Assembly: GCA_963845385.1 (NCBI GenBank)
Contig: CAWJRW010000006.1
Span: forward strand, 711,450-775,449
Direction of reading: 5' to 3'
Length of the DNA: 64,000 nucleotides
DNA from: an uncultured Alphaproteobacteria bacterium
Lineage (GTDB): Bacteria; Pseudomonadota; Alphaproteobacteria; CAWJRW01
Shown here piece after piece: positions 4,259 to 50,929 of the stretch (position 1 is its first letter; every line of letters begins with the position of its first letter). Under the pieces are notes generated by a model. The model ran no database searches. It was given only the letters and a program-made list of their open reading frames with translations, and was not told the origin of the DNA. The position numbers were made by a program, and so were the translations under genes.

Positions 4259-7044
<2,786 letters not shown>

Positions 7045-24994: not shown

Positions 24995-25111
24995 CTCCCA
25001 ATTCCTCGAGTCATCGTTGAAGGCGATCCCCGGAGCCTATTCATCCGTAGGCGGATGATTTGCCGGCAGGCGAGAGAGTAGGCGCGTCCGGGTCCGAGCC
25101 TGAGAGCCGCC

Positions 25112-26535: not shown

Positions 26536-26539
26536 GAAG

Positions 26540-26652: not shown

Positions 26653-26752
26653 CTCACAACACGGTAGATCCAAAAATTGGTCTCACATCAATGAGGATCG
26701 GGCTCTACTCATCGCTGGATGAAAGAAAGGGCTCAGGTCAGTGCCATAGGCC

Positions 26753-27415
26753 TTGTTTAATAAAACCTCTTATTTTGGATCGCGTCCTTCGATGCAGCGT
26801 GAGGGTGGCATATGGTCGGTGTTGGGTGCTGCCTCGATCTATTCGTCGTTTCAGGATTTCCTGGGCGCTGACGCAGCGCGGCGGGCATTCGTCGCGCGAC
26901 ACGTTCGGCCGCACGCCGGCATGCGCATTCTCGATGTTGGTTGTGGCCCTTCCGACATATTTGCGCATCTGGATCAAGTGACCTATGTCGGCGTCGACCG
27001 ATCAAGCAATTATATCGCTGCGGCGAAGGCCAAGTTCGGCCATCGTGGCACATTCATCTGTGGCGATGTCACGGAGCTCAAACTTCCAGTTGACGAGAGA
27101 TTCGACGTGGTTCTTGCGATTGGCCTTCTACATCATTTGAGCGACGCAGAGGCGATATCGCTCATGTCCAGCCTAACCGCCTTGCTCTCGCTATCAGGAC
27201 GCTTCGTTACTGTTGATCCGGTGAAGGAGAACCAGCAGCATCCCATAGCCCGGCTTATGATTTCTCTTGATCGCGGGAAGAACGTGAGGACCAAAGAGCA
27301 ATATGTAAGCTTGCTTCGGTCGTCCTTTAGGACAGTCGAAGCCGCCGTTTATCGCGATCTCATGCGTATTCCCTATAGCCATTTGATCGCAGAGGCGCGC
27401 AGCTCCGGAGATTGA
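26753..27415 (+). CDS. Class I SAM-dependent methyltransferase (island gene 1)
   Basis: RILDVGCGPSD motif I; FDVVLAIGLLHHL; lower-GC codon usage. Confidence 0.75.
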   Translation: MFNKTSYFGSRPSMQREGGIWSVLGAASIYSSFQDFLGADAARRAFVARHVRPHAGMRILDVGCGPSDIFAHLDQVTYVGVDRSSNYIAAAKAKFGHRGTFICGDVTELKLPVDERFDVVLAIGLLHHLSDAEAISLMSSLTALLSLSGRFVTVDPVKENQQHPIARLMISLDRGKNVRTKEQYVSLLRSSFRTVEAAVYRDLMRIPYSHLIAEARSSGD

Positions 27416-27712
27416 TCATGAGACCCTCTCTTGCGGTCGCCGGGCGATGAAGCAAATCGCGATCATCCCCTCAAATTACATTCATTATTCTCGATGCCGT
27501 ACGGGACACGAAGAACGACTAGAGTAGTCGCAACCGTATTCCAACGGCCTCGGGCGGACTTTGGCTCACGATCCCGCAAGCGGGTGCGTCATGGTGGCGA
27601 TCCCTCCTATCCGCAGCTCCAGGCGGCTTTTGATCCCTATGTGAGCGTTCTCGACCAGCTGATGAATAAGGGCCCGGGAGCCCGGCGCAAAATGAAGTGT
27701 GGGTCTGGACCG

Positions 27713-28560
27713 TCACCCGGGAGCAAGATGGCTGAGGCGCACGCGCAACGGCGTCGCCCAGCGCGCGGGCCAGCGCCGCAGCAAGGCGAGCGCGCCTGTT
27801 GCACGGAAAATGCGGGCCGCCGCTACCAAACCGCGATGACGGCGCGCGAACTCTTCATCGACCAAGAGGCGCTCCAAGGCTTCGGCCATTACGCCTTGGT
27901 CGAAAGCGATCGAGAGGCCATTGCGTCGTGCCAGGGCACGCAAGCGCGACGCTGTCACGAAGTTTAGGCTCCGCCAAAGCTCATCCTTGCGCAGGTGCCG
28001 CGCCCAGGGCGTGCGTGCCGGTATGACCGGCAGGAGTAGAATGCCGTAGTGCGGTTCGTAGGGGACCTGGTAATTGGCGCAAGTGTAAATCATGACCCCG
28101 CCCGCAGCGAGGACGCCCGACATCGCCGCCATTGCTTCGTCGAGGGCGGCAATGTGCTCCAGCACATTGACGCTGAAGATGACGGAAAACCTGCCGTGCA
28201 GCTTGGGATCGAGGTCTTCGGCGCCAATGCGGTGAAGTTTCACTTGCGTCGCGCGAAGTCGCGCATGGACGGCTGCCATCAAAGGATGAATTCAGCGGGA
28301 AGCCGGTACCTTCCGGCTCGACCGCCTCGATTTCTACGCCTGCACGTGCCAGGAAGGCCGTAAAGAGTCCAATACCGGCGCCGACTTCGAGCACACGCCC
28401 GTCGAGCGGCACATTACGTAAGAGTTCTCACGCCGACCGGCAGTTCCGCGGGCGAAGATTCGAAGGTAGTAGGATGCGGTCGACGTGTCGCATCCGGCGT
28501 CGGCCGCACAGCCGGCCACAAAGGCGGGCGCGCCAATCTCAGTGAGGAAGTCTGCGACCT
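27713..28560 (-). CDS. Class I SAM-dependent methyltransferase (island), frame changes near 28285 and 28425. Start uncertain.
   Basis: RVLEVGAGIGLFTAFLARAGVEIEAVEPEG (motif I) in ORF 27981..28412, FSVIFSVNVLEHIAALDEAMAAMSGVLAAGGVMIY in ORF 27713..28282. Confidence 0.65.
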
Positions 28561-28646
28561 GCGCAGCCGAGACCCCTGCACTCATGGAGTTGTACGGTAC
28601 GGCAAACGGGACAACCGGATCACCGGCAAGGCCGAGCGCGCCACCC

Positions 28647-29342
28647 TCATGAAGCAATGCGGATTTGCGACCGTTTACCGCCAATCCGCGTGCCGCTTCT
28701 CAAATTGCTGTAATAGTGCTCGGTGAAGCCGGCGGCCTTCATCGGCGCGGCGATTTGTTCGATATCGTAAGCCACGCGATGGAGTTTCATTTCGGCACCG
28801 GTCCACACGGCGAATGCCGCTCGCGGATCGCCGTCGCGCGGTTGGCCGACCGAGCCCGGATTGCAGTACCACTTTTCGCCCAGTGACCAAAGGCCCTGAA
28901 CATGCGTGTGACCCGAGACGAAGATCGTGCCCTCACGCTCGGCGAAGTAATCCGGCGAAATCATGTTGATATATTCGTCAAGGGGGTCATTCCATCCGGC
29001 ATGCACCAGCGACAGCTCGCCAATTCGCAGCACACCGCAGTGTGACTTCGACAACCATGCCAAATTATCCGGGGTTATGACACGGCGTTGCCAATCGAGA
29101 CAGGTGTTCGCACTATTCGAACGCGGGCATGCTTGGCTCGAGATCAAATAATGGTCGTGATTTCCAAGCAGGTTTCGAATGCCGCGGCGGCGGAGCTCGT
29201 CGATGCATTCGTTGATCATGCAGTAATAGCCACCGACGTCGCCCAGGGAGATCGTCTCGTCAATGCCGAGCGCGTCGATGGCGCTTAGGACGGCCCGCAT
29301 CGCGGGATAATTCCCGTGGATGTCAGAGATGATCGCCATCAT
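28647..29342 (-). CDS. Calcineurin-like metallophosphoesterase (YfcE/MPP family)
   Basis: MMAIISDIHGN, LGDVGGYY, GNHDHY, GHTHV phosphoesterase motifs. Confidence 0.8.
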   Translation of the reverse strand: MMAIISDIHGNYPAMRAVLSAIDALGIDETISLGDVGGYYCMINECIDELRRRGIRNLLGNHDHYLISSQACPRSNSANTCLDWQRRVITPDNLAWLSKSHCGVLRIGELSLVHAGWNDPLDEYINMISPDYFAEREGTIFVSGHTHVQGLWSLGEKWYCNPGSVGQPRDGDPRAAFAVWTGAEMKLHRVAYDIEQIAAPMKAAGFTEHYYSNLRSGTRIGGKRSQIRIAS

Positions 29343-30294
29343 AGGAAACAATGTCCTCAATATAGCGTACGGCAGTGCCGCTTCGGATCGGGCGATCGTC
29401 CGGCAGGCGGCCGTGCAAATAGTAGTCGATGCAGGCCGCCGCTTCATTATAGCCAAAGGCGCAGCGAATGGAGGTCGCCGACGAAATCCGTGGATTGATT
29501 TCGAGCAAATAGGGCGTGTCGTCCTCGACCCGGAACTGGAAATTCGTCGGACCGAGAGGATGAAACGTCTGTGCGAGCTGATCGATCAGGCGCTGGAAGG
29601 GTTCCCCGGATACTGTCTTTGCCTTTGCCGTCGCGCCTTCGCCGCTGAGGCGGCGCTGCAAGGCCATGAGTTGACCGATGCCGCCCCGGCCATCCCCGAA
29701 GCCGCTTATCGTAAACTCGGCGTCATCGCGACCGACAATTCGCTGTGCCATCAGCGTTTGGCCGAACTCTGCGCCATGATAGATGAAGTCACGTTCATCG
29801 CGGATGCGCACGATTCCTTTGCCGGCATAACCGTGACGCGGCTTCAATAGAAATGGCAGGCCGAGGCTCTGTGCAAGGTCGGCGAAAGTGCCATCGATGC
29901 GGCTCGGAATGGCTGGGGCGCCGAGGCCGACCAAGGCTTGATGCATTCGCCATTTGTCGTCGGCGAGCTCTATGAGCGCCGGTGAGTTCAGCGCAATTCT
30001 CGCATCGTAACGCTGTGACGCCGCCGCCTGGCGCGCGAAAACGGACATGTCCTGCTCGATGCCCGGAATGACAAGATCGATCGCGTGCGTACTGATCACA
30101 TCGCGCAGGAAAGCGTCATAGCCCGGATCGCTGACGAGGCAAGATTGGACGAATTGATCGCACCAGTGCTGTCCGGCAGCATCCGCGAAGATGTCCATGC
30201 CGACAAGATAAGGAGCGGGCTTCAGCTGTTTCAGCGTGCGGAGAATGCCATAGCCAATGACCGCACCAACACCCGTGACGAGAATGCGGTTCAT
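29323..30294 (-). CDS. ATP-grasp domain ligase (carboxylate-amine ligase-like)
   Basis: LPFLLKPRHGYAGKGIVRI ... YLLEINPRISSA (ATP-grasp C-terminal motif); overlaps its neighbours at both ends. Confidence 0.75.
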   Translation of the reverse strand: MNRILVTGVGAVIGYGILRTLKQLKPAPYLVGMDIFADAAGQHWCDQFVQSCLVSDPGYDAFLRDVISTHAIDLVIPGIEQDMSVFARQAAASQRYDARIALNSPALIELADDKWRMHQALVGLGAPAIPSRIDGTFADLAQSLGLPFLLKPRHGYAGKGIVRIRDERDFIYHGAEFGQTLMAQRIVGRDDAEFTISGFGDGRGGIGQLMALQRRLSGEGATAKAKTVSGEPFQRLIDQLAQTFHPLGPTNFQFRVEDDTPYLLEINPRISSATSIRCAFGYNEAAACIDYYLHGRLPDDRPIRSGTAVRYIEDIVSYDGDHL

Positions 30295-31152
30295 GATGCG
30301 GCGCTTTGCTTTGCTGCTATCGCCCCGAAAATATCACGAAGGCTCCAGGGTTGAACGTCCAGATTAGTCCAGGTCGAAGTTGCGTCGGGAACATAAATTG
30401 ACTTCAGATCCGCTTTCGCGGGATCGCGGAGGACCTTGCCGCCTTTCTTGAATTGCGCCTGGGCAAGCTCGGCGATCTTGGTAATCGACATCCGGTCGGG
30501 TCCCGCACAGACAAACACACCCGCCTTGGTGTGCTGTACGATTGCGACAACGGCAGCCGCGACATCCGTGACTGAAACGAAATTGCGAATGGGATCGGCT
30601 TTCCCGTGAATTATGATGTCTCGACCGCTGGCTGCATGATCAACGATCGTCCAGAAAAGCGGCTGGTGGCGGCGACTAAGGCCGTCCACATCCACGATTT
30701 GACTGGGCAAGACGGTCGTGAGGCTCAGACCATTCCGTCCGCAAAGCGAACTCAAGGTTTTCGGCACCCTGCTGTTTGGACAAGCCGTAGGAGCCAAAAT
30801 ACTCATTCTCGGGATGATCGATGGCGAACAGACTCGAGACGAAGACGATATGTCGCGCGCCGACACGTAAGGCGACCTCGCCGACGAGGATGGCCCCGAG
30901 CGCGTTTATTTTCGCATTCTCACGCATCCCCGCAGGGCTATCGCCCAGAAATGAGGCGGCGCAGTGAATGACGGAGTCGACCTGCATTGTGCCGGTGTCA
31001 GGCGGCTCAAACGCTGAAAGATCGAGATAGAGGTCGTTGTCAGGATGGCGTCCAGCCGACCAGACGTGAGTGTCGACGGCCCTGAGCCGTACGGTAATGT
31101 GCTGCGCCAGCATCGACGATGCACCGACCACTAGGACGCTGCGCCTCTGCAT
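30291..31152 (-). CDS. NAD-dependent epimerase/dehydratase (SDR family), frame change near 30720-30760
   Basis: SVLVVGASSMLAQHITVRL Rossmann motif; YGLSKQQGE catalytic YxxxK; stop overlaps the ATP-grasp start (ATGA). Confidence 0.7.
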
Positions 31153-31378
31153 CCCGCCTTCCTCTGAAATTTTTCCTGCCCCCAACTTTGGTCAGGCATC
31201 ATGTGCTGCGCGATCTGCGGCGGCAAGAGCGCATGTGCGACGAGCTTTCATCGCGATAACCGCGAGAGTCGGGCAATCCCGTCCGTGCAAATCCGCGCCG
31301 CGTCCGAAACTGCCTTGCATCGGTGGCGAAGATATGCGAGTGGTCCGACGGTGATCCGGCTTTGCACATCGGCATGCA

Positions 31379-32353
31379 ATGGATGTCTCTGTCATCATAC
31401 CAACCTACCGGAACGCGCGCGTGTTGCTCGAGCTTGCGCGACGATTGGTGGACACACTTTCGGCATCCGTTGGCTCCTTCGAAATCATTCTAATCGACGA
31501 CGGAAATCGCGACAACACCTGGGCCGTGATCTCGGACTTGGCGGCCAAATATCCGCAAGTCAAAGGGATTCGCCTGTCGCGGAATTTCGGCCAGCATCCG
31601 GCCATCGCTGCCGGTTTCAAGGCGGCGCAAGGCCAGCGCATCGTCTTGATGGACGCCGATCTCGAAGATCGGCCGGAGGCCATTCCCGAACTCCTCGCTG
31701 GTCTCGATGGCGGCGTAGACATCGTGTTTACGGTGATTGCCAATCCCAACGAGCATTCCCGCCGTCGCATCACGTCGATGCTTTTTCGTGGGGCATTCTC
31801 TTATTTGTCGCCGATGGAATTCCCACCGAATGTCGGGACGCTGAGGGCCTTCACCCGTCAAGTCCTTGAAGCTATTCGACAATATAACGAATATAATGTA
31901 CTATATGGTCCTCTGATGTTTTACTTGGGGTTCAATTGCAAGTTCATTGAAGTCATGCGCGGCCCATCGGCGCTCGGCGGCAGCAGCTACAGCTTTCGGC
32001 GACGCCTCCGGCTCGCGTCAGCCACGCTCTTCAGTTACACGAATTTGCCGAACACCATTTTCCTTGTCGGGGGTGGTATTCTTCTTGGCTTGGCGCTGTT
32101 GTATATCTTGTTGATCCTCGGCCAGTACATTTTTTTCGGTCCTGTTGCGTCAGGTGGTTTCGTCTTTCTCGCGCTACTCGCATTGGGCGGGATAGCAGTC
32201 AACTTGATCGCTTTCGGCGTAATCGGCACCTATGTATACCGTGTCTACCAGGAGGTGTTGGGGAGACCAAGATATCATGTGATGGCCGTGACGGGGAGCA
32301 TGTCGACTGGACGCGGTCAAAATGCGAAAGGCTTTGAGGTTGACGGACAATAG
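31379..32353 (+). CDS. GT2 polyprenyl-phosphate glycosyltransferase (GtrB/ArnC/DPM1-like) with C-terminal TM helices
   Basis: VSVIIPTYRNAR ... IILIDDGNRDNT ... LMDADLEDRPE; two C-terminal hydrophobic helices. Confidence 0.8.
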   Translation: MDVSVIIPTYRNARVLLELARRLVDTLSASVGSFEIILIDDGNRDNTWAVISDLAAKYPQVKGIRLSRNFGQHPAIAAGFKAAQGQRIVLMDADLEDRPEAIPELLAGLDGGVDIVFTVIANPNEHSRRRITSMLFRGAFSYLSPMEFPPNVGTLRAFTRQVLEAIRQYNEYNVLYGPLMFYLGFNCKFIEVMRGPSALGGSSYSFRRRLRLASATLFSYTNLPNTIFLVGGGILLGLALLYILLILGQYIFFGPVASGGFVFLALLALGGIAVNLIAFGVIGTYVYRVYQEVLGRPRYHVMAVTGSMSTGRGQNAKGFEVDGQ

Positions 32354-33182
32354 CAAGGAATGGCGGGCGAAGGTTCTGGCAGCCAATCGTGAGGTCCACG
32401 GCAGGCTTGCCGATGTCTATGAAAAGACCGAACCTCATTTCCGCCCTGAGAATCAAAGCAAAGTAAAAGAACGCCTCGCTCGCATCAGTAAGCGCACAAG
32501 CGCCGAACGGCTCCTCGATATCGGTTGCGGCACAGGGTTTATACTGCGTCAGGCGGTCGGGGTCTTCAAGCGAATCGACGGCATCGATATCACACAGGAA
32601 ATGATCGCCCGCATTCCCGATCTCGGTCCGACCGTTCATGTGCAGTTGGCCGAAGCGGAGGCGCTGCCATTTCCGGATGCAACCTTCGATGTCGTTTCCG
32701 CCTATTCCGTCTTCGACCATCTGGTCGATTACCGCGTCACCTTGCGGGAAGTCGCGCGGGTCCTAAAGCCCGGAGGCATATTCTACGCCGATCTCATTCC
32801 GAACCGCTGTTTTTGGCAGGCGCTCGGCGCCCTGGATGCAAGCGCTGTCCCAACTCTCTCCGACATTGTCGAACGCGAATGGCGCATGGTTCATGAAAAC
32901 GATAAACGCGTCGAGGCGGAGTTCGGCGTCGACTCCGAGGCGTTCCGCAATGCCGAGCCCGGCAAGTTGGAGGGCGGCATCGATGCGGAAGAGGTGTGCG
33001 CCTCGGCGCGCAAGCTCGGATATTCGCAACCCGAATTTCATTACGATTGGTTCCTCGGCCAAGGCGCCGTCATGCACGGCCAATCGTTCGAGGAGGCGGC
33101 GGTCATCGAGACCTATCTCGAGCGCGTGACGCCGCTCTCTCGCCATCTCTTCAAATATATCTATTTCGTTCTCACCAAGTAG
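32322..33182 (+). CDS. Class I SAM-dependent methyltransferase (island)
   Basis: RLLDIGCGTGFILRQ motif I; FDVVSAYSVFDHL; VLKPGGIFY. Confidence 0.75.
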   Translation: MRKALRLTDNSKEWRAKVLAANREVHGRLADVYEKTEPHFRPENQSKVKERLARISKRTSAERLLDIGCGTGFILRQAVGVFKRIDGIDITQEMIARIPDLGPTVHVQLAEAEALPFPDATFDVVSAYSVFDHLVDYRVTLREVARVLKPGGIFYADLIPNRCFWQALGALDASAVPTLSDIVEREWRMVHENDKRVEAEFGVDSEAFRNAEPGKLEGGIDAEEVCASARKLGYSQPEFHYDWFLGQGAVMHGQSFEEAAVIETYLERVTPLSRHLFKYIYFVLTK

Positions 33183-33189
33183 GCATTCC

Positions 33190-33972
33190 ATGCCGACGGT
33201 GCCCTCGCCAACCCTTCTGAAAGAGTTCGATGAGATTGGTTTCACGATCATCAACAACATGATCTCGCCCGCCGAGGTCGCAGAGATGCGGCCGCTGCTG
33301 CAATCCTGTATCGATGCGGACATCGCCAATTGGCAGGGCAAGCCCGGCTATATCGATCACTGGATGGTGCATAACCTGATGGTTCGCGGCGAGCCCTTTC
33401 TACGCTTGCTCGAGAACCCGTCTCTGCATGCGTACCTCGAAGCGGGATTCTCCAAGAATGCGATCTTGTATGCCTATACGTCGTCCAGCATGCCGCCACA
33501 TGGCAGCAACTATTCGCGACGAATCCATGTCGATTGTCCGCGGGTGATCCCGGGATACCGAACGAATGTCGGGTTCCTCGTGGCGCTTGACGATTTCACG
33601 CTTGAGAACGGCGCCACATACGTGTTGCCCAAGTCGCAATGGCGCAGCGATCCGCCCTCGGAAGAAGAATTTCTAGCCAATGCCGTGCGCCTGATGCCCA
33701 AGTCGGGCGACGCCATCTTCTTCAACGCGCGGACTTGGCACATGGGCGGTCAGAACAATACGGACATTCCCCGGCACTCGGTAACGTTGAATATTTGCCG
33801 GCGCTACATGCGCCAGCGCTTCGATTACCCGCGCCTGGTGCCGCCCGGGCTTGTCGCAAAGCTCGGGCCTGTCGGCCGGCGTTTTCTGGGCTTCGAAGTG
33901 CGCGTACCGACAAGCCTTGAAGAGTACTACGTCTCACCCGAAGAGAGACTCTATTTGCCGGCGGAAGAATGA
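33190..33972 (+). CDS. Phytanoyl-CoA dioxygenase (PhyH)-family Fe(II)/2OG oxygenase
   Basis: HVDCPRVIPGYRTNVGFLVALDDFTLENGATYVLPKSQ ... ARTWHMGGQN. Confidence 0.75.
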   Translation: MPTVPSPTLLKEFDEIGFTIINNMISPAEVAEMRPLLQSCIDADIANWQGKPGYIDHWMVHNLMVRGEPFLRLLENPSLHAYLEAGFSKNAILYAYTSSSMPPHGSNYSRRIHVDCPRVIPGYRTNVGFLVALDDFTLENGATYVLPKSQWRSDPPSEEEFLANAVRLMPKSGDAIFFNARTWHMGGQNNTDIPRHSVTLNICRRYMRQRFDYPRLVPPGLVAKLGPVGRRFLGFEVRVPTSLEEYYVSPEERLYLPAEE

Positions 33973-34040
33973 AAGCGCGGCACCCCGTCACGCGTTCCTC
34001 GCATTTGCAGTCGCTTCGCAATCGAAGGAGAGCGCATTCT

Positions 34041-34852
34041 TGACCTATCTATGGCGCTTCTTGAAGCAGACACCACTCTCGATTCTCCTGTATCGCATCT
34101 TCACATACCCATTCCCGTATCGCATTGGTCTTGCGCGGTTGTGGTTCACCCTCCGGCCGCGAACGCGCCCTCACTACTACGCTTGCATGTTGGAGGCGGC
34201 GCTACTGGCTCGCGCGCTCGATCATCGGTCTATTTCCGTTCTTGAGTTTGGCGTTGCCAGCGGCAATGGCCTGCTGGCGATGGAGCGCTATGCCGAAAAA
34301 ATCCAGCGCCGCATTGGAATAGAGATCGCGCTCTACGGTTTTGACATGGGTGATCAAGGCGGGCTGCCGGCGACAACCGATCCGCGCGATATGCCTTACC
34401 TTTGGCCGCCAGGCGCTTACAAGATGGATTTCGCGCGGCTCAAAGCGCGACTGCGGCGCGCGGAGCTGCGGCTCGGCAATGTCGCCGAGACCGTGCCCGC
34501 CTTTGCCAAAGAAGCAATCGCGCCCATCGCAGCCGTTTTCATCGACGTCGACTACTACTCATCCACCATGGAGGTCTTGAAGCTTTTCGACCTTGCCAAG
34601 GGGCGGACCTTGCCGCGTGTGGTTTGCTACTTTGACGACGTCGATGTCTCCAACACGTTCAACGGCGAGCTCGCCGCCATCATTGGCTTCAATGCAAGTC
34701 ATTCCCATCTCAAGATCGCGCGCGTTGATAGCCACCACACGGCCGTCCTCTATGGCACCTTCAACAATCACGTGTTTCATCTTCATGATTTTGAACACCC
34801 GGCTTACAATCGATATATTCCCGGTGGCGTCGTCGAGGAATTGCCACTCTGA
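34041..34852 (+). CDS. TylF/MycF/CmcI-like (class I, family 3) O-methyltransferase; probable TTG start after AAGGAGA
   Basis: ISVLEFGVASGNGLLAM ... VFIDVDYYSSTMEVLKLF ... RVVCYFDDV resembles the macrocin/sugar O-methyltransferase family. Confidence 0.5.
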
Positions 34853-34891
34853 TCGCCGCCAAATGATTTTGGGGACGCAGGATGTCCCGCG

Positions 34892-35290
34892 TCAGCGTTC
34901 ATGAGACAGGTTGAGTGGTTTTGCTAAGAGTTTGACTTGAAACGATGGCATTGATTTCAAGCTCTTGCGAGCCGGCGCGTGATGAGCCGGATATGGGCGA
35001 TGAAGACCCAGGCGGCGGCGCTTGAGATGGTCGCTTCGAAGCCCTTGGCCAATCTGCGGCATCGGTGAAGAGATGACGCAACCACGGATAAAGCCTGCGG
35101 ATGGTGGTGAGCACGCCGGGGGCGCCGTCGCGGTCTTGGATATCGGCAGTATGCACAACCGCGCCGACAAGATGACCTTGCGTGTCGGTGACGATATGGC
35201 GCTTCGGCCCTTGATCTTCTTGCCCGCATCGAACCCGCGTGGGCCGCCGCTTTCCGTGGTCTTCACCGATTGGCTGTCGATCACACCTGC
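34892..35290 (-). mobile_element. 5'-truncated, frameshifted IS5-family (IS427/IS1031-like) transposase remnant spread over three frames
   Basis: IDSQSVKTTESGGPRGFDAGKKIKGR / KRHIVTDTQGHLVGAVVHTADIQDRDGAPGVL / NRCRRLAKGFE...IAHIRLITRRL correspond to successive conserved IS5 transposase blocks. Confidence 0.7.
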
Positions 35291-35631
35291 ACTGGGGCTC
35301 GGTCCCGTCCCGCCTTCTCACGCGCGGCCATGACGAGAGCGTGCGTAGGCGCTGCACGGTACGCGGCGGGGATAAGCATAAAAGGCGCGTGGCGGAAGTG
35401 CTCTAGCAAACGTCCAAGGTCCGCGACATTGCGCGGCAAGCCTTCTTCGCGCAAACGCGGAAGGGCGAGCTTCGCAAGGCATTTGTCGTAGTCCGCAACC
35501 TTGTCCCCGTCGCTGCCAAACAAGCGAAGCGCAAGGTCGGCGGCGATACTCTCTAGATCATCGGCAACATTGACGAGGTGGCGCGGAAGCTTGCGCGGGC
35601 TGTGTGTGAAACGCGATTGACGAGCGCTCAT
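35281..35631 (-). CDS. Hypothetical protein (116 aa), no recognised domain
   Basis: Intact ORF only; located between the IS5 remnant and tRNA-Val. Confidence 0.3.
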   Translation of the reverse strand: MSARQSRFTHSPRKLPRHLVNVADDLESIAADLALRLFGSDGDKVADYDKCLAKLALPRLREEGLPRNVADLGRLLEHFRHAPFMLIPAAYRAAPTHALVMAAREKAGRDRAPVQV

Positions 35632-35870
35632 AGCTGCCTCTCCTTCGGTTACTGTGACGGGAAGGCCAAGGCGACACGCTACGCCGCGCCCGGCCGTATC
35701 AGACGCAACAGGAACAAGGGCGGCACACTATCGGGGCCGCGCCGGTATCTCTTAAATAGGAGATATCAACTCTTATATAGTAGTTAAGGGGCAGGCAAGA
35801 AAAAGGCGCCCGGCCGGATCGGGGGCGCCTCTAACTTGACCATATCTCCTATATATGGGACGTTTCGGCC

Positions 35871-36071
35871 ATGCCGGGACCAAAGCCGCGATACACGGCA
35901 AGCTTCATCTTTCAGCTAGAGCCGCGCGACCTTGCGGCGCTCAAGGCGTGGGCCAGGGCGCATGACATGTCGGCTGCGGCGGTGGCCCGTCTTGCGGTGC
36001 GGGAATTTGTAAGTTCGGCCAAGCCTGGACGCCCAAAGGCCCGGAAGGGCAAGGCACCGGCTGGCAAGTAG
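35871..36071 (+). CDS. Small basic DNA-binding-like protein (66 aa), possibly ribbon-helix-helix
   Basis: RDLAALKAWARAHDMSAAAVARLAVREFV followed by a Lys/Arg-rich tail; inverted repeats upstream. Confidence 0.4.
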   Translation: MPGPKPRYTASFIFQLEPRDLAALKAWARAHDMSAAAVARLAVREFVSSAKPGRPKARKGKAPAGK

Positions 36072-36316
36072 CGCGGCCGTTCTATCTTGAATGTCTTGAC
36101 GGCGCGGGGCTTACCGATCACTCAGCGGTGACGGTGGCGCGCTCGCGGCTATCTGCACTATCTGCGCTATCTGCGGGCGCCCGCGCCCTTCATCGAAGGA
36201 GGGGCCGTGTGGTCTCGAAACGGCTCCGGTGGCTTCCTGCTGGCTTCCAGTCGGCCACGGCGCCTAAGTACACCGCCCAAGATGCTAAATTAAGCCCTTT
36301 CCACCGCTTGATAATT

Positions 36317-36391
36317 TGGTGGGCGCGACAGGGTTTGAACCTGTGGCCCCTACGATGTGAACGTAGTGCTCTACCGCTGAGCTACGCGCCC
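36317..36391 (-). tRNA. tRNA-Val (anticodon CAC), 75 nt including CCA
   Basis: Reverse complement GGGCGCGTAGCTCAGCGGTAGAGCACTACGTTCACATCGTAGGGGCCACAGGTTCAAACCCTGTCGCGCCCACCA folds as a cloverleaf. Confidence 0.9.
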
Positions 36392-38271: not shown

Positions 38272-39680
38272 ATGCCCATCGAAATTCGCATGCCCGCGCT
38301 CTCGCCCACCATGGAGGAGGGCAAGCTCGCCAAGTGGCTGGTGAGCGAAGGCGACTCCGTCAAGGCCGGTGACGTCATCGCGGAGATCGAGACCGACAAG
38401 GCGACCATGGAGGTCGAAGCGGTCGACGAGGGGAGGCTGTCTAAGATTTTGGTACCCGAAGGCACGGAAGGTGTGAAAGTCAACGCGCCCATCGCGCTCT
38501 TGAACGGGAAGAAGAAGAAGAAGGAGTGTCCCCCTCACCCCGGCCCTCTCCCCAGGGGGAGAGGGAGCAGAAAGTTCGTGCGCCGAAAATTCCCTCTCCC
38601 CTGCGGGGAGAGGGTCAGGGTGAGGGGGTAAAGCCAAAGCCCGCTCAGCCCTCGACGCGCGCGCCACTCGTGGAGCCGGATGTTCCCGCCGGCACGCGCA
38701 TGGTGTCGATCACCGTGCGCGAAGCCTTGCGCGACGCCATGGCCGAGGAGATGCGCCGCGACGAGCGCGTCTTTCTCATGGGCGAGGAGGTGGCCGAGTA
38801 TCAGGGCGCCTACAAGGTGAGCCAGGGACTGCTCGAAGAGTTCGGCGCGCGGCGCGTCATCGACACGCCCATCACCGAGCACGGCTTCACCGGGCTCGGC
38901 ATCGGCACGGCCTTCGGCGGCTTGCGCCCCATCGTCGAGTTCATGACCTGGAACTTCGCCCTGCAAGCCATGGATCAGCTCGTCAACTCGGCCGCCAAGA
39001 CGCGCTACATGTCGGGCGGCCAGATGGCGTGCCCCATCGTCTTTCGCGGACCGAACGGACCGGCCGCGCGCGTCGGCGCACAGCACAGCCAGGATTTCTC
39101 CGCCTGGTTCGCACACATTCCGGGGCTCAAGGTGATAGCGCCTTACTCGGCGGCCGACGCCAAGGGTCTCCTCAAATCGGCGATCCGCGATCCCAATCCC
39201 GTGATCTTTCTCGAAAATGAAATCCTCTATGGCCGCTCTTTCGAGGTGCCGGATTTGCCCGACTATCTCGTGCCCATCGGCAAGGCCAAGATCGTGCGCG
39301 TTGGAGCCGACGTCACGCTCGTCGCCCATTCCATCGCCGTGGGCCTGGCGCTCGAGGCCGCCGAGGCGCTGGCGGGCGAGGGCATCGAGGCCGAGATCGT
39401 CGACTTGCGCACGCTTCGTCCGCTGGACAGCGCGACCGTCGTGCAGTCGGTGATGAAGACCAATCGCTGCGTAACGGTGGAGCAGGGCTGGCCCGTGGGC
39501 GGCATCGGCGCCGAGATCGCCGCGCGCGTCATGGAAGAAGCCTTCGATTACCTCGATGCGCCGGTGAAACGCGTGGCCGCGAAAGACGTGCCCTTGCCTT
39601 ACGCCGCCAATCTCGAAAAGCTCGCGCTGCCTTCGGTCGCCGACATCATCGAAGCGGCGAAAGCCGTGACCTATCGCTGA
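38272..39680 (+). CDS. pdhB: Pyruvate dehydrogenase E1 beta subunit with N-terminal lipoyl domain. The frame switches inside a GC-rich palindromic insert (38531-38627).
   Basis: Lipoyl domain [14 protein letters not shown] in frame 38272..38631; transketolase-like E1 beta ([26 protein letters not shown]...) in frame 38526..39680. Confidence 0.9.
38531..38627. repeat. Composite palindromic GC-rich repeat element: outer IR CCCCTCACCC/GGGTGAGGGG enclosing two CCCTCTCCCC-N2-3-GGGGAGAGGG hairpins
   Basis: Read directly from sequence; lies in the pdhB linker. Confidence 0.8.
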
Positions 39681-39682
39681 TC

Positions 39683-41065
39683 ATGCCCACGCCCATTCTC
39701 ATGCCCGCGCTGTCGCCCACCATGGAGACGGGCAAGCTCGCCAAATGGCACGTCAAGGAAGGCGATGACGTGAAGGCGGGCCAGGTGATTGCCGAGATCG
39801 AGACCGACAAGGCCACCATGGAGGTGGAAGCGGTCGACGAGGGAAAAGTCGGGAAGATTCTGGTGCCCGAGGGCGCCGAAGACGTGAAGGTCAACGCGCC
39901 CATCGCGCTCTTGCTCGGCGAGGGCGAGGATGCGAGCGCGCTGAAAGGAAACGGTGGTGATCAAAAAATTCCTCCCCCCTCCCCTGGAGGGAGGGGGCAG
40001 GGGGAGGGGGAAACGGCCACGCCCAGTTCTGCTGAGCTGGCAAGGAAATCACCCCCCACCCCGGCCCTCCCCCTCAAGGGGGGAGGGAGAGAGATCTCGG
40101 TAAGCCACGAAGCTCCGCCTACGGAGCGAATTTTGGCGAGCCCCTTGGCGCGCCGCCTCGCTGGCGAGCGGAAGCTCGAGCTCGCGGCCATTGCGGGCTC
40201 GGGGCCGCGCGGCCGCATCGTCAAGCACGACGTCGAGCAGGCGGTCGCAAAGGGCCCCGCAGCGCCGAGGGCCGCGCCCGCGCCGGCGCCGCGCGCGCCA
40301 GTGGCCCCAAGCGCCGAGCGGGCGGCAAGGCCGCTCGAGCTTCCCGATCCGCGCACGCTCTTCGAGCCCGGCTCCTACGAGGAAATCAAGCACGATGCGA
40401 TGCGCAAGGCCATCGCGCGCCGGCTCACGCTTTCCAAGCAAACGATCCCCCATTACTACCTGACCGTCGATTGCGAGATCGAGGCGCTGGTCAAGCTGCG
40501 CAAGGACCTCAACGCCAAGTCGCCGGAAGGCGAGGGCGCCTACAAGCTCTCGGTCAACGACTTCGTCATCCGCGCGGTGGCGCTCGCGCTGATGAAATTT
40601 CCCGCCGCAAACGTCACCTGGACCGAGGACGCTCTGCTTCGTCACAAGCACGCCGATGTCGGCGTCGCGGTGGCGATCCCGGGCGGACTCATCACGCCCA
40701 TCATCCGCCACGCCGAGCTCAAGGGTCTGGCGGAGATCTCCCGCGAGATGGCCGACCTCGCCGAGCGCGCGCGGACAAAGAAGCTCAAGCCCAACGAGTT
40801 CGAGGGCGGGAGCTTCGCCATCTCCAATCTCGGCATGTTCGGCGTGAAGGAATTCGCCGCCGTCATCAATCCGCCCCACGCCGCCATTCTCGCCGTCGGC
40901 CGCGGCGAGGAGCGCGCGGTCGTAAAGAACGGCGCGCTCGCCAAGGCCCATGTGATGACCGTGACACTTTCGGCCGATCACCGCGCCATCGACGGCGCCA
41001 CGGCGGCGCAGTTCCTCCAGATCCTCAGGGACTATCTCGAGGATCCCGCGACGATGCTGCTGTGA
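39683..41065 (+). CDS. pdhC: Dihydrolipoamide acetyltransferase (pyruvate dehydrogenase E2), intact
   Basis: Lipoyl domain [12 protein letters not shown]; PSBD domain [15 protein letters not shown]; catalytic domain [10 protein letters not shown]. Confidence 0.95.
39971..40090. repeat. Two GC-rich palindromic repeat units in the pdhC linker (39971-40010 and 40051-40090), same family as the pdhB element, translated in-frame
   Basis: CACCCCGGCCCTCCCCCTCAAGGGGGGAGGG versus pdhB CACCCCGGCCCTCTCCCCAGGGGGAGAGGG; encodes [13 protein letters not shown]...[12 protein letters not shown]. Confidence 0.8.
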
Positions 41066-41417
41066 TGCTTCCATTCGAGGGGGCACCGCCGCAGGCCGAC
41101 ATTGAAGCGTGAAGCCGTTTGTGGCCTTCCTTGAGACGCAAAAGAGCGCGGGGGTCAGCATGTCCACCTATGTCTCGGTCAGCATGTCCAGTCATCCGCT
41201 CCGGCGCGAGGAAACCGGCGTGGTGTTCAACGTGACGTCGAATGACGGGACGAAATCGGCGAGCTCGTCGTGAGCAAGGGCGGAATTCGTTGGCGCGCGA
41301 AGAACGAGCGCGATCACCATTTCCTGTCTTGGGCGCGGCTCGACGAGGTGATGAGTCACGCGCCCAAGCGCTGAACGAACAGCCTGACGACGCCGCGAGG
41401 GAGCCACGCAGAAAGCC

Positions 41418-42822
41418 CATGGTGAGCGAAGCTTCGACCTCATCGTTCTCGGCTCGGGCCCCGGCGGCTATGTGGCGGCCATCCGCGCGGCCCAGCTCGG
41501 CATGAAGACCGCCATCGTCGAGCGCGAGAATCTGGGCGGCATCTGCCTCAACTGGGGCTGCATTCCGACCAAGGCGCTGCTGCGCTCCTCCGAGCTCTTT
41601 CACTTGATGCAGCGCGCAGGTGAATTCGGCTTGTCGGCTAAGGAGATCAGCTTCGATCCTGCCAAAGTGGTCGAGCGCTCGCGCAAGGTCGCCGCGCGGC
41701 TCTCGGACGGCATCAAGTTCCTGATGAGGAAGCACAAGATCGAGGTCGTCTGGGGCGAAGGCAGGCTCGAGGGGGCGGGCAAGCTGTCCGTCGACCAAGG
41801 ACGGCAAGACCGAAACGCTTGCCGCCAAGACACATCATTCTCGCCACGGGCGCCCGCGCGCGATCGCTGCCGGGGCTCGAAGGCCGATGGCAAAGCTCGT
41901 CTGGACCTATCGCGAAGCCATGGTGCCGGACATTTTTCCGAAGTCGCTGCTCGTCATCGGCTCGGGCGCCATCGGCATCGAGTTCGCGAGTTTCTTTCGC
42001 ACGCTGGGCGCCGAGGTGACGGTGGTGGAAATCCTCGATCGCATTCTGCCGGTCGAGGACGCCGAGATCTCGCAGCTCGCCGAGAAGGCTTTTCGCAAGC
42101 AGGGCATGACGATCCACACCGGCGCCAAAGTGGAGTCACTGTCGCGCGGAAAGGACTCCGTGAAGGCCGTCATCAAGACCAAGGACGGCAAGAGCGAGAC
42201 CAGGGAGTTTCAGCGCGCCATCCTCGCCGTCGGCATCACCGGCAACGTCGAGAACATCGGGCTTGAAAAGGCGGGCGTGAAAGTTGACAGAGGCCACATC
42301 GTGATCGACCAATGGGGCTCGACCGGCGTGCCCGGCCTCTATGCCATCGGCGACGTCGCGGGCCCGCCCTGGCTCGCGCACAAGGCGATGCACGAGGGCG
42401 TGATTTGCGTCGAGAAGATCGCGGGCGTCAAAGGCGTGCATCCCCTCGACACGTCCAAGATTCCCGGTTGCACGTATTCCTATCCGCAAGTGGCCTCCAT
42501 CGGCCTCACCGAAGCGCAAGCGAAGGAGAAGGGCATGGCCGTGAAAGTCGGGCGCTTTCCCTTCCTCGGCAACGGCAAGGCGATTGCGCTGGGCGAGCTC
42601 GAAGGCCTCGTCAAGACGGTGTTCGACGCCAAGACGGGCGAGCTCTTGGGCGCGCACATGATCGGCGCCGAAGTCACCGAGCTCATCCAGGGCTTCGCCA
42701 TCGCGCGTACGCTGGAATCCACAGAAGCCGAGCTCATGGCCACCATCTTCCCCCATCCCACGCTGTCGGAAATGATGCACGAGGCGGTCCTCGACGCTTA
42801 CGGCCGGGCGCTCCATATTTGA
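41418..42822 (+). CDS. lpdA: Dihydrolipoyl dehydrogenase (E3), at least three frame changes (near 41432, 41810, 41885)
   Basis: LGGICLNWGCIPTKALL, LLVIGSGAIGIEFASFF, HPTLSE; N-terminal FAD motif disrupted by a 1-nt deletion (EASTSSFSARAP where ASFDLIVLGSGPGG is expected). Confidence 0.9.
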
Positions 42823-43177: not shown

Positions 43178-44145
43178 ATGACCATCGTTTATGACCGCTT
43201 GAAGGACAATTCTGCGGCGCTCCGCCATCCCGAGAAACGCAATCGCGCGGAGACGCCGTCGCCGCCAAAGCCCGCCTGGCTGCGCGTGCGCGCGCCGTCT
43301 TCGCCCGGCTATTTTTCCACGCTCGCGCTCATGCGCGAGAGCCGGCTCGTCACGGTGTGCGAGGAGGCGGGCTGCCCCAACATCGGCGAATGCTGGAGCC
43401 AGGGTCACGCCACCATGATGATCATGGGCGACACCTGCACGCGGGCTTGCGCCTTCTGCAACGTCAAGACGGGATTGCCGGGGCCGCTCGACGCGGACGA
43501 GCCCCAACGCGTGGCGGAGGCCTTAGCGAAGCTCGGGCTTGCGCCACGTCGTCATCACGTCCGTGGATCGCGACGATCTCCCCGACGGCGGCGCGGGCCA
43601 CTTCGCCGCCGTTATCCGCGCCATTCGCAGGGCGGCGCCGGCGACGACGATCGAAGTGCTGACGCCGGATTTCCTGCGCAAAGCCGGGCGCGGTCGAGAC
43701 CGTGGTCGAAGCCCGGCCCGATGTCTTCAACCACAATCTCGAGACGGTGCCGCGCCTTTACCTTTCCGTCAGGCCCGGCGCGCGATACTTCGCCTCGCTC
43801 CGCCTCTTGCAGGAGGCCAAGGCGCTCGAGCCTTCGCTCTTCACCAAGTCGGGCCTGATGGTAGGGCTCGGCGAGAGCCGCGAGGAAGTGATGCAGGTGA
43901 TGGACGATTTGCGCGTGGCCGATGTCGACTTTCTCACCATCGGCCAATATCTGCAGCCGACGCGCAAGCACGCGGCCGTCCAGCGCTTCGTGACGCCCGA
44001 GGAATTTCAGGATCTCGAGCGCATCGCCCGCGGCAAAGGGTTTCTCATGGTATCCGCAAGCCCGCTCACGCGCTCGTCTTATCACGCGGGCGATGATTTC
44101 GCGCGCCTTGCCGCCTTGCGCGAGGCGGCCACGGCCCGCGTTTAA
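43178..44145 (+). CDS. lipA: Lipoyl synthase, frame changes near 43545 and 43690
   Basis: [27 protein letters not shown] radical-SAM motifs, then [12 protein letters not shown] and C-terminal [16 protein letters not shown] in other frames. Confidence 0.9.
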
Positions 44146-44161: not shown

Positions 44162-44632
44162 GTGCCGAGCTATGCGGAAAGGCGCTCGCTCCCGTGGAGC
44201 CCGTCGGAAATGTACGCGCTCGTGGCCGACGTTGAGCGCTATCCGGAATTCTTGCCCTGGTGCACGGCGCTGCGCGTGAAGGACCGCACGCAGCAGAACG
44301 GTCATGAAGTGCTCATGGCCGACATGACGGTGGCGTTCAAGGCGTTGCAGGAGCGCTTTGCCAGCCGTGTCATTCTCGATCCCGAGGCGCGGCGCATCGA
44401 CGTCGAATATATCGACGGTCCTTTCCGCTCCCTGATCAACAATTGGCGCTTCGAGCCGGGCGATGCCGGGGGCGTCGTCGTCGATTTCTTCATCGACTTC
44501 GATTTTCGAAGCCGTGTGCTGGGGCTCGTCATGAGCGCCGTCTTCAGCCGCGCGGCGGAAAAGATCGTGCAGGCCTTCGAGGCGCGCGCGCGCACCGTCT
44601 ACGGAACGCCCGTTCTCCCTCGCGAAGTCTAA
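44162..44632 (+). CDS. SRPBCC-family protein (RatA / CoQ-binding Coq10-like); start approximate
   Basis: SEMYALVADVERYPEFLPWC ... FRSLINNWRFEP; conserved position after lipA. Confidence 0.7.
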   Translation: MPSYAERRSLPWSPSEMYALVADVERYPEFLPWCTALRVKDRTQQNGHEVLMADMTVAFKALQERFASRVILDPEARRIDVEYIDGPFRSLINNWRFEPGDAGGVVVDFFIDFDFRSRVLGLVMSAVFSRAAEKIVQAFEARARTVYGTPVLPREV

Positions 44633-45881
44633 TCGGGCTTCACGTCCGCCAGCCGATCGACGCGGCGCAGGTCGGGGAAGAGATAGCCCCACAGCGCCAC
44701 CACCATGACCGTGCCGAGACCTCCGATCACGACCGCGGCCACGGTGCCGAACCAAGAGGCCATGACGCCGGCTCGGAATTCGCCGAGCTCGTTCGAGGCG
44801 CCGATGAACACCATGTTCACCGCGCTCACGCGCCCGCGCATGTGGTCGGGCGTTGCGAGTTGCACGAGCGTGTTGCGAACATAGATGCTGATCATGTCCG
44901 TGGCGCCGATGACGACGAGCGCCGCGAGCGAGAGCGCGAAATTCTTCGATAGGCCGAAGACGATCGTCGCTGCGCCGAAGACCGCGACGCAAAGGAGCAT
45001 GATGATGCCCGTGCGCCCGCCAAGCGGCCTGTAGGCGAGAATGAGCGCGCAGGCCGTGGCACCGACCGCGGGCGCGCTACGCAAGAGGCCGAGGCCCGTC
45101 GGGCCGACGCGGAGAATGTCGTCCGCATAAATCGGCAAGAGCGCCGTGGCGCCGCCCAACAGCACCGCGAAGAGATCGAGCGAGATGGCGCCGAAGATCA
45201 CAGGCTTCCGGCGCATATAGGCAATGCCCGCGGCAAAGCGGGCAAACGTGCCGGCCTCCGAATCGAAGGGTTGCGGTTTCGTGCGTACGCTGATGACCGC
45301 ATAGGTCGCGGCGACGCCCAAGAACAGCACCAGGCCCGCCGCGAAGGTCGCCGACGCGCCCGAGACATAGAGCGCACCGCCCAGAGCGGGCCCGGCAATG
45401 ACCGCTGTCTGAAAGACCGAGGAGGAGAGCGCGACGGCCGTCGCAAGCTGCTCCTTGGGCACGAGCTGGGGCAGGAAAGCCTGCACGGCGGGAAAGGCGT
45501 ATGCGCGCGCCGTGCCGAAGAGCACGAGCGCGACGTAGTAAGGCCACGGCGGCGCTGACATTCGCCGTCACAAGCCCGACGAAGAATCGCCGCCGAGCCT
45601 GCTTGCGCGATATAGCTCACGATCAGGATGAGCCGCCGCTGCATGTGATCGGCGAGGCTTCCGGCCGGCAGCACGAGCGCCGCCATGGGCAGGAACTGCG
45701 CGAGCCCGACATAGCCCAGCGCCAAGGGATCGCGCGTCAGCGCGTAGACGTGCCAGCCCACGGCAACCGACTGCACCATGATGGCAAAGGTCGAGAGAAA
45801 ACGGCTGACGAGGAAAAGGCGAAAGTCCCTAAGGCCGAGCAGCGCGCGCGTTTGTCCGGCGGGTGCCGTCACCGATGTCAT
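44629..45881 (-). CDS. MFS transporter, frame change near 45560-45600
   Basis: 12-TM hydrophobic profile across ORFs 45198..45881 and 44629..45561. Confidence 0.7.
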
Positions 45882-46420: not shown

Positions 46421-46879
46421 TCAGATCACCTTTTCGATGAGCCAATAGGTTCCGATAGCTGCGAGTGCCGCGGCAAGATCGTCGACCATGATGCCGATGC
46501 TGCCCGGCACGCGCCGATTGAGCCAGGAGATCGGCCAAGGTTTTGCGATGTCGAAAACGCGAAAGAGCACAAAACCTGCGGCGGCGCCGATCTCGTCGAG
46601 GGGTACGGCTACGAAGACGAGCCACATGCCTGCGACTTCGTCGATGACCACCTCGCTGGGGTCCGCGCGCTTGACGGCCTGCGCATAAGCGCCGCTCGCC
46701 CAGAGGCCCGCCGCGCAAGCAAGAACGACTGCCACGGCGAGCGCCAAGCGGCCGCCAAGCCGCTCGATCGGTATGGCAAGCAGGAGAGCCGCGAGCGAAC
46801 CCCAGGTTCCCGGTCCCGGCCGCAAACGGCCGACGGGTCCGAACGTGGCGATCTCGCGCTGCAGTTTAGCGCGCGTCAT
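46421..46879 (-). CDS. pgpA: Phosphatidylglycerophosphatase A
   Basis: [25 protein letters not shown] ... [12 protein letters not shown] ... [12 protein letters not shown]. Confidence 0.8.
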
Positions 46880-48052
46880 GCGCCCGCTTCGAAGGGCAAG
46901 CGGACGCAGGCCACGGCCTCGGCCGCGAGGCCTTCTTGGCGCCCGGTGAAGCCAAGACGCTCGCTTGTCGTCGCCTTCACGCTGACACGCCCGGGCGCGA
47001 TCTCGAGAATAGCGGCGACGCGTTCGATCATGGCCTGACGGTGCGGACCCACCTTCGGCCGCTCGCAGATCAAGGTAACGTCGACATTCTCGATCGAGCC
47101 GCCCTTGGCGCGCACGAGCCTCGGCCGCATGCGCGAGAAAGATGTCGCTCGACGCACCGCGCCATTTGCGCATCGCTCGGCGGGAAATGCTCGCCGATAT
47201 CGCCCGCGCCGATGGCGCCCAGAAGCGCGTCGGTGATGGCATGAAGACCCGCATCGGCATCCGAGTGGCCTTCGAGCTCGCGCTCGTGGGCGAATGCGCA
47301 CGCCGCACAGCCACACATGATCGCCCGGCACGAAGCGATGCACGTCGAAGCCGTGGCCGACGCGCATGCTCGAAGCGGATGCCAACATGCGTTCTGCGCG
47401 CAAGAAATCCTCCGCTGATGTGAGCTTGATGTTATCGGGCGAGCCCTCGACCAGCGCAACCGAAAGCCCTGCGGCCTCGGCTACGGCGGCATCGTCGGTG
47501 AGCGCGCGGCCGGCGGCGAAAGCATGGGCCTCGCAAATGGCGCGGAAAGCGGAAGCCTTGCGGCGTCTGCGCGCGGAAGAGCTACTTCGCGCGGCATCGT
47601 CTCGACGATCAGCCGTTCTCGCGCGCGCGCTTGAGCGTGTCGCTCACGGCGAGCGCGGGGATGGCGCCGTCATGATCGGCGAGCGCATCCAGCACGCGCG
47701 TGACGACGGCCTTGTCGACGAAGGGCCGCGCGGCATCGTGGATGAGCACGAGATCCGGCGGGTTTTCCTTCAGCGCCAAGAGGCCGTGGCGCACCGAGTC
47801 CTGGCGCGAGGCGCCGCCCGCGACCGGCTCGGGCAGCGCGAAGCCCTGGACCGCTGCCTGGTAGAACGCGCGCTCCTCGGGGTGGATGACCACCTGGATG
47901 CGCGCGATGCGGGGATGGCTGGCGAACGCCGCCAGCGAATGGGCGAGAAGCGCACGGCCGCCCAGGCTCCGGTACTGCTTGGGCACCCCGCCGCCCGCGC
48001 GCACGCCCCGTCCGGCGGCGACGATGAGGGCGGCAACCTCCTGGCTACCCAT
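46876..48052 (-). CDS. ispDF: Bifunctional IspD/IspF (MEP cytidylyltransferase / MEcPP synthase), several frame changes (about 47150-47400)
   Basis: IspD: [20 protein letters not shown]; IspF: [10 protein letters not shown] and [33 protein letters not shown] in different frames. Confidence 0.85.
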
Positions 48053-50827: not shown

Positions 50828-50929
50828 TGTAATCGCGCCACAATGTGGTGTCGTATCGCATCGATTGGCCCGTTAAGATTGGGGTTGGTCGCCGTCGTCG
50901 ACTTGGGAAGGGGGTCTGGAAGCCGCCCG

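Follow-up and report, generated by a model that had tools for sequence, protein, structure and literature searches.

A palindromic element lies within pdhB, the gene for the lipoyl-E1beta protein of pyruvate dehydrogenase (PDH), in the stretch of DNA analyzed in this study, 64,000 nucleotides of contig CAWJRW010000006.1 from an uncultured alphaproteobacterium (below, the window). It is quite probable that this element is an inverted pair of BoxC/PIT/TM repeat units that is translated as the linker of PdhB, and that the split of pdhB between two reading frames in the deposited sequence comes from an insertion-deletion (indel) error at about position 38508, and not from the element. The parts of the element are as follows.

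38530-38628, no strand assigned: two TM/BoxC-type units forming an inverted 'tails-out' pair, spaced by 26 nt, delimited with a repeat finder and by RNA folding
38532-38565, minus strand: TM unit 1, CCCTCTCCC-CCTG-GGGAGAGGG-CCG-GGGTGAGGG, an exact match to the TM_ECO pattern
38592-38626, plus strand: TM unit 2, CCCTCTCCC-CTGCG-GGGAGAGGG-TCA-GGGTGAGGG, an exact match to the TM_ECO pattern

In each unit, of about 35 nt, a C-rich arm is followed by a loop and a complementary G-rich arm, and then by a 3-nt loop and a second G-rich arm, GGGTGAGGG. In both units the GGGTGAGGG(G) arm is present at one side only. The element contains two perfect 10-bp hairpins, CCCTCTCCCC-AG-GGGGAGAGGG at 38544-38565 and CCCTCTCCCC-TGC-GGGGAGAGGG at 38592-38614, and this hairpin pattern has two matches in the window, against 0.00 expected from 100 shuffles. 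The outer arms, CCCCTCACCC at 38531-38540 and GGGTGAGGGG at 38618-38627, belong to an outer inverted repeat of 24 nt (38530-38553 and 38605-38628), which the repeat finder scores as 92% complementary. The predicted RNA fold of 38500-38650, computed with Watson-Crick folding only, is one hairpin of about 35 bp (-92.1 kcal/mol, z = -7.4). The plus-strand unit has AAAATT before it.

A full-text search for GGGGAGAGGG led to the paper of Holder et al. (2015, NAR; PMC4666352), where the 'TM_ECO' intrastrand triplex motif is described under this and two earlier names, BoxC and PIT (potential intrastrand triplex) element, and where earlier work on the family by Bachellier et al. and by Hoyne/Maher et al. 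is cited. The motif is defined there by the pattern 5'-CCCTCNCCC-N3-6-GGGNGAGGG-N3-GGGNGAGGG-3', has 3610 copies across 262 proteobacterial genomes, and can also form inverted pairs, with the two units close together and on opposite strands. Its copies in E. coli K-12 are 'always located intergenically', a feature reported for E. coli that does not belong to the sequence definition of TM_ECO. In vitro, a TM_ECO DNA oligonucleotide folds into a stable triplex; the E. coli loci are prone to rearrangement, and neither a regulatory role nor a link to mobile elements was found (PMC4666352).

The pdhB element contains two exact matches to the TM_ECO pattern, with 0.00 expected in 100 shuffles. Since both halves match exactly and inverted pairs are published, the outer inverted repeat is the third arm of two opposed units. 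In our own comparison, the plus-strand unit 2 is identical to the E. coli TM_ECO sequences of Table 1 of PMC4666352 at about 32 of 36 positions, and the second loop of the minus-strand unit 1, CCG, is the E. coli 'type B' loop. Judged by its sequence, the pdhB element is a new intragenic member of the known BoxC/PIT/TM family, with which it shares the three-arm unit, the consensus, the type B loop, and the arrangement in inverted pairs. It differs from the described members in several respects. The E. coli K-12 copies are intergenic, whereas those in pdhB and pdhC are coding and in frame; the E. coli pairs are 'tails-in' by the Table 1 coordinates of PMC4666352, whereas the pdhB pair is 'tails-out' with its 26-nt spacer; and the host here is an uncultured alphaproteobacterium, with the triplex only predicted from the sequence pattern. 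The same 'tails-out' doublet is present in another contig, L114. The simple hairpin by itself is very common: a scan of unrelated viral contigs gave at least 120 matches, and among the matches listed 63 of 162 hairpins carry a GGGTGAGGG-type arm at one side and none at both. Rfam holds no family for the pdhB element; its only matches, to generic miRNA hairpins, were below threshold and were discarded as meaningless.

These results bear on what a first-pass annotation, made from the letters alone, had said of the element. Its outer repeat and two perfect hairpins are found exactly where it placed them, and no such hairpin is expected in shuffled sequence (0.00). The peptide of 34 letters that it quoted is the frame-1 translation of the element, its placement between the lipoyl and E1beta domains agrees with the Pfam domains on either side, and its suggestion of a repeat family is borne out by the exact TM_ECO matches. 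The 97-bp composite with an outer inverted repeat that it described stands as a structure but not as a single novel entity, being two opposed copies of a known three-arm unit.

The first-pass annotation also made other copies of the motif a condition of its reading, and two variant units do occur in the linker of the neighboring gene pdhC, encoding the E2 subunit:

39975-40008, plus strand: variant TM unit with arms CCCCCTCCC/GGGAGGGGG, in the pdhC (E2) linker, in frame (12 residues)
40052-40087, minus strand: variant TM unit with arms CCCTCCCCC/GGGGGAGGG, in the pdhC linker, in frame (13 residues)

Both were identified with a fuzzy pattern allowing at most two substitutions and lie in the lipoyl-to-E3-binding linker of pdhC (39683-41065), which is intact at 460 amino acids and has an intact Pfam architecture. 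The pair is arranged 'tails-in', the opposite of the pdhB pair. Thus the window holds four TM units, two exact and two variant, all of them within the pdhB and pdhC linkers. In the variant units the register of any third-arm symmetry (triplex covariation) is arbitrary owing to the G-runs. On the minus strand, the first pdhC unit together with AATTTTTT (39971-39994) has an intrinsic-terminator-like score, antisense to pdhC.

Full TM units, again with at most two substitutions, were then counted in 83 alphaproteobacterial pdh loci with a total of 905 kb. These comprise 80 loci from a genome scan with the E1beta core, in which the relatives are at most 81% identical among the matches listed, together with L001, L002, and the window. 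The counts, and the positions of the pdhC-linker units outside the window, are:

pdhC linkers, 11.5 kb examined: 11 full TM units, in 8 loci
pdhB linkers, 14.6 kb examined: 2 full TM units, in the window only
everything else, 879 kb examined: 5 full TM units, in 4 loci
pdhC-linker units elsewhere: L001 3041-3135, L158 5894-5926, L159 7453-7487, L160 7190-7224
pdhC-linker units elsewhere, continued: L164 7658-7692, L166 7324-7358, L197 5231-5319

The density of TM units is therefore 0.96 per kb in pdhC linkers vs 0.006 per kb elsewhere, a difference of more than 100-fold. All linker copies in the 83 loci are in frame within uninterrupted E2 open reading frames (ORFs), and codon-shuffled linkers yield no full units vs 11 observed. 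The hosts include metagenome-assembled genomes (MAGs) labelled Parvibaculum, Pseudolabrys, and Stellaceae; with looser matches, to the hairpin only, MAGs under the labels Afipia and Xanthobacteraceae join them. Units are most often read as PSPxPSPxxGEG … SPLxGEG; the units of L197 are read in another frame (SPHPNPPPLAGEG), and those of the window pdhC in a third frame and in the opposite order. At least three frames and two arrangements imply several independent events or frame-changing rearrangements. The same facts would imply that linker TM units were repeatedly and independently acquired, or maintained. In a limited literature search, translated TM copies were not described in any paper found.

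At the protein level, the PdhB linkers of other relatives (P0013, P0028, P0036, and P0078) also encode TM-type peptides. Five further PdhB linkers (P0070, P0090, P0097, P0100, and P0103) contain peptides of the type SSFETRP…PQDE…RHPEV…ASKDD, which look like translated copies of another repeat family of Alphaproteobacteria. In that case PdhB linkers would take up more than one kind of repeat.

The enrichment in PDH linkers is, in our opinion, the point most worth pursuing. It marks the linkers between the domains of lipoyl proteins as sites that TM repeats prefer or that are especially permissive to them. The enrichment could result from tolerance alone; from insertion or recombination that is targeted to GGCGAGGGCGAGG, a GEGE-coding sequence resembling a TM arm; from exchange between the paralogous lipoyl-linker modules of pdhB and pdhC; or from a role at the mRNA level, for instance a strong structure at which ribosomes would pause between domains, or termination in antisense. 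If targeting or selection and not tolerance is the source, the enrichment would offer a handle on what TM repeats do. That the units are no passive passengers but a recurrent feature, perhaps under selection, of the lipoyl-domain linkers of pyruvate dehydrogenase genes in Alphaproteobacteria is at present a doubtful proposition. Recent gene conversion between pdhB and pdhC over the whole lipoyl domain was also considered and left no strong signal, DNA identity being 84-90% between orthologues vs 78-86% between paralogues.

Upstream of pdhB lies pdhA, and downstream of it pdhC. In the deposited sequence pdhB is represented by two ORFs that lie in different frames and overlap across the element: ORF 38272..38631, with the Pfam domain Biotin_lipoyl at residues 4-76 (1.7e-22), and ORF 38526..39680, with Transket_pyr and Transketolase_C. 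Public gene calls follow this split, giving P0125 (119 aa) and P0003 (336 aa, with a GTG start at 38670); the latter is the E1beta call for the window on the 2.19-Mb NCBI/ENA contig and is 100% identical to it over 336 aa. A protein search identified fused lipoyl-E1beta orthologues, namely P0121 (contig L203), which falls in the cluster of P0003 at 90% or more, P0002 (contig L002, 89%), and P0004 (contig L001, 86%). With these, the parts of the gene can be assigned:

38272-38508, plus strand: 5' part of pdhB, in the upstream frame, with the lipoyl domain and the first part of the linker (…NAPIALLNG); Pfam, collinear with fused orthologues up to LLNG
38506-38508, plus strand: one-base gap splitting pdhB, AAC GG^GAA, by alignment with L001, L002, and L203 (AAY GGC GAR)
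38509-38523, plus strand: (AAG)5 as written, which the restored frame reads as (GAA)5 = EEEEE, the acidic first part of the linker
38629-38631, plus strand: TAA ending the upstream-frame ORF; the restored gene reads across it in another frame (…GGG GTA AAG…)
38700-39680, plus strand: E1-beta catalytic core of pdhB; Pfam Transket_pyr and Transketolase_C

The window sequence alone bounds the frame change to 38445-38628. After the lipoyl domain, L001, L002, and L203 all read …TTG AAY GGC GAR…, so that their linkers start with LLNGEEE or LLNGEGE, whereas the window reads TTG AAC GG-GAA GAA…, and the alignments with the three fused orthologues place a 1-nt gap at about 38508. When one base is inserted after 38507, the result is an ORF of 469 aa with a single stop, whose product is 87% identical to P0004 from end to end with one 2-aa gap and has a 33-residue linker peptide over 38530-38628. 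Between the start of the element and the E1beta core the window keeps the same net frame as L001, where the intact 471-aa gene of P0004 contains a decayed copy of the doublet at the same site, in a frame equivalent to the downstream frame of the window. The orthologue alignments and the restoration by one base thus put the frame change 22 nt upstream of the element and outside its C5/G5 runs. The true pdhB is most likely a normal fused lipoyl-E1beta gene of 469 codons. Like the fused PdhB proteins of other Alphaproteobacteria (454-471 aa in the relatives), its product has a lipoyl domain, a linker, and E1beta; unlike them, the deposited gene is split by a 1-nt gap, and its linker is built mostly of repeat-element sequence. 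Two E1beta proteins without a lipoyl domain, P0106 and P0012, are uninformative as candidates for naturally split genes: a contig end truncates one, and an indel-ridden contig is the source of the other. On L205, the ENA contig with P0012, pdhB has no lipoyl part and pdhC is called as two proteins of 155 and 270 aa, and this contig looks like the same indel-ridden type of assembly rather than a natural split.

The gap in pdhB is one of many in the window. Frame breaks were scored by Pfam split-domain checks and by tblastn with the proteins of L002, the latter revealing that the frame shifts in six genes over about 12 kb: pdhB, a gene of 71 aa, lpd, lipA (twice), an MFS gene, and ispDF. The split-domain checks found a HAMP/HisKA/HATPase histidine kinase to be split as well, and gyrA to extend over four overlapping stop-to-stop ORFs in three frames, with at least three frame changes; positions 1-33, 28-213, and 206-432 of the DNA_topoisoIV profile fall in three different gyrA ORFs, and the C-terminal blades in the fourth. 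The broken genes other than pdhB, conserved and in part essential, are:

4194-7041: gyrA
41160-41371: 71-aa gene
41472-42822: lpd
43178-44100: lipA
44632-45881: MFS gene
46879-48052: ispDF
50828-53268: histidine kinase

At the 1-nt indels in the DNA alignment, L001 and L002 share one reading and the window has another; most of these indels are a single extra window base lengthening a short A-run, for instance CAA-GC to CAAAGC, seen twice. The compared block has about one frame-breaking indel per 1-2 kb, a density at which at least one break is expected in any gene of 1.4 kb. Since a cell with gyrA, lipA, ispDF, and lpd all broken would not be viable, the assembly must hold frequent indel errors, and the contig appears to be of the unpolished long-read type. 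With indels pervading the assembly, the shift in pdhB is very probably an artefact: the gap is most likely one of the many assembly errors and not a mutation. Calls such as 'pseudogene', 'split gene', or 'recoding' made from this contig are unsafe without polishing, and all frame-dependent findings need caution. A plot of GC3 minus GC2 was too noisy by itself to count frameshifts across the window.

The first-pass annotation had left a choice between an element tolerated in frame, with an indel error behind the shift, and an insertion that truly disrupts pdhB. The former is favored, both by the intact gene in L001 with its decayed copy at the same site and in the same frame and by the many equivalent indels in the window; the latter is not supported, as the element is open in the frame that is used and a single upstream base restores a full-length PdhB. 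The same annotation was mistaken in setting the frame change inside the element, at its C5/G5 runs. The alignment with relatives that it proposed gave a divided result, with no recognizable palindromes in L203 and L002 and the decayed copy in L001.

The following scheme would account for these observations. A BoxC/PIT/TM unit folds into a hairpin and, in vitro, into an intrastrand triplex. The pdhB pair would have settled in the Pro/Gly/Ser/Glu-rich, unstructured linker that joins the lipoyl domain to the E1-beta core, either by insertion or by transfer between the paralogous pdhB and pdhC linkers, and would be read there simply as linker. Two properties may explain why it is tolerated: such a linker offers no fold that could be disturbed, and of the six frames of a unit five contain no stop and encode peptides rich in P, S, G, E, R, and L. 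The exception is one frame in the plus orientation, which is closed by a TGA within GGGTGAGGG. As the open frames encode a Pro/Ser/Gly/Glu-rich peptide, the element could be nearly neutral for selection in a disordered linker, and linkers would then keep copies that are lethal elsewhere in genes. The split of pdhB would come from one missing base at about 38508 (GG[C/G]GAA), 22 nt upstream, and the element itself would be harmless to the gene.

A functional parallel are the Rickettsia palindromic elements (RPE), which are about 150 bp long, lie in frame within protein-coding genes, and add a peptide without destroying the protein (PMC10969869). In common with RPE and intragenic MITEs (miniature transposable elements with inverted repeats), the pdhB pair is a small palindromic repeat in frame inside a gene, and the likeness is functional only. 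RPE are known from Rickettsia only, are probably unrelated in sequence, and occur in many unrelated genes, whereas the TM units are about 35 nt long, match TM_ECO, and are concentrated in the lipoyl linkers of PDH in the loci examined. Translated E1beta- and E2-linker copies from several lineages of Alphaproteobacteria show that G/C-rich triplex-motif repeats can become a flexible protein linker, as RPE do in Rickettsia.

Several observations weigh against a translated TM pair in a gene split by an assembly error. L203 and L002, the closest relatives, have no recognizable units at the pdhB site; the pair may be ancestral and retained, or recently acquired or converted. The missing base need not sit in a homopolymer, as the orthologues read GGC. 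An in-frame allele of the same strain was not found in metagenomes with the exact junction plus 0-1 base or with a codon-degenerate pattern of 15 residues. Finally, the deposited sequence and the public calls P0125 and P0003 agree with a real one-base deletion, which would leave either a pseudogene or a free 119-aa lipoyl protein ending in the element-encoded peptide and a separate E1beta; candidate start codons for the latter (GTG at 38670 or ATG at 38700) are available upstream of the core. We nevertheless regard a real deletion as improbable, because the essential gyrA, with its three or more frame changes, and lpd, lipA, and ispDF are broken in the same manner, which is not viable, because all fused relatives keep one frame, and because a single restored base yields a full-length protein resembling the orthologues. 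The geometry of the junction would also suit a programmed -1 ribosomal frameshift, in which ribosomes slip on (AAG)5, from AAG to GAA, at the 35-bp hairpin and produce full-length PdhB, while those that do not shift produce the 119-aa lipoyl protein. The required shift is -1, the codon repeat ends at 38523 and the hairpin starts at 38530, leaving a spacer of 6 nt, within the 5-9 nt typical of such sites, and the downstream structure is very stable (-92 kcal/mol, z -7.4). A precedent exists in human genes, for which frameshifting at codon repeats, helped by downstream structures, has been reported (PMC12809536). Such a shift is not conserved here, L001, L002, and L203 all being in frame with GGC GAR; the orthologous elements lie in ordinary in-frame genes, and the window is full of equivalent 1-nt indels without such a context. 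Moreover, (AAG)n is not a canonical slippery heptamer, since AAG AAG does not have the form X XXY YYZ. With the orthologues in frame, we judge the frameshift-like geometry of (AAG)5 and the hairpin to be coincidental, and recoding to be scarcely credible.

Two other alternatives concern the origin of the element. The 99-bp composite could be a mobile doublet of the REPIN or MITE type, moved by a RAYT-like or other transposase, that jumped recently into pdhB. REPINs are doublets of REP sequences, extragenic and mobilized by RAYT transposases (PMC3116915); the main REP superfamilies have a terminal GTAG/CGTC tag (PMC3733652). The pdhB element resembles them in being an inverted doublet of short palindromic units (two of about 35 nt with a short spacer), about 100 bp in all, that forms one long predicted hairpin. 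'Tails-out' doublets occur elsewhere, for instance in L114, and the pdhC and pdhB doublets of L001 have similar spacers. However, the pdhB doublet is intragenic, whereas REPINs are extragenic and RAYT-associated, and a terminal GTAG/CGTC tag is not evident by eye in its units, although no formal search for one was made. Holder et al. saw no link between TM_ECO and mobile elements (PMC4666352), no further copy of the doublet is present within the window, and the decayed copy at the same site in L001 speaks against a recent jump, which makes this origin decidedly improbable. Still more so, to the point of being very hard to accept, is an origin without any insertion, in which linker codons already there evolved into the palindromes, through chance or through selection on mRNA structure. 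A unit read in the used frame does give a typical linker peptide, PSP..GEG..GEG (PSP being CCC TCN CCC and GEG being GGN GAG GGN), and the E2 and E1beta linkers start with GEGE. Yet codon-shuffled linkers produced none of the 11 full units observed, the units fit a published 27-base consensus shared with E. coli, loop lengths included, and their use of at least three reading frames across lineages is unexpected under convergence driven by the peptide. The preferred explanation of the element thus remains an inverted pair of units of the BoxC/PIT/TM family, read as linker.

Apart from the pdh genes, the window contains a region of about 11.3 kb (approximately 25015-36317) that is not present in the relative L002. 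Its GC content is 0.56-0.61 vs 0.64-0.67, and it ends at a tRNA-Val(cac) gene (36317-36391, minus strand). Among its products are dioxygenases of the TauD and PhyH types, a GT2 glycosyltransferase, two methyltransferases, an ATP-grasp protein, and a fragment of an epimerase; the tested ORFs showed no integrase. It is probably a horizontally acquired island at the tRNA gene. An AT-rich inverted repeat of 19 nt, TCTCTTAAATAGGAGATAT / ATATCTCCTATATATGGGA (35748-35766 / 35842-35860), is located at the tRNA-proximal edge of the island, just upstream of an ORF of 66 aa (35871-36071).

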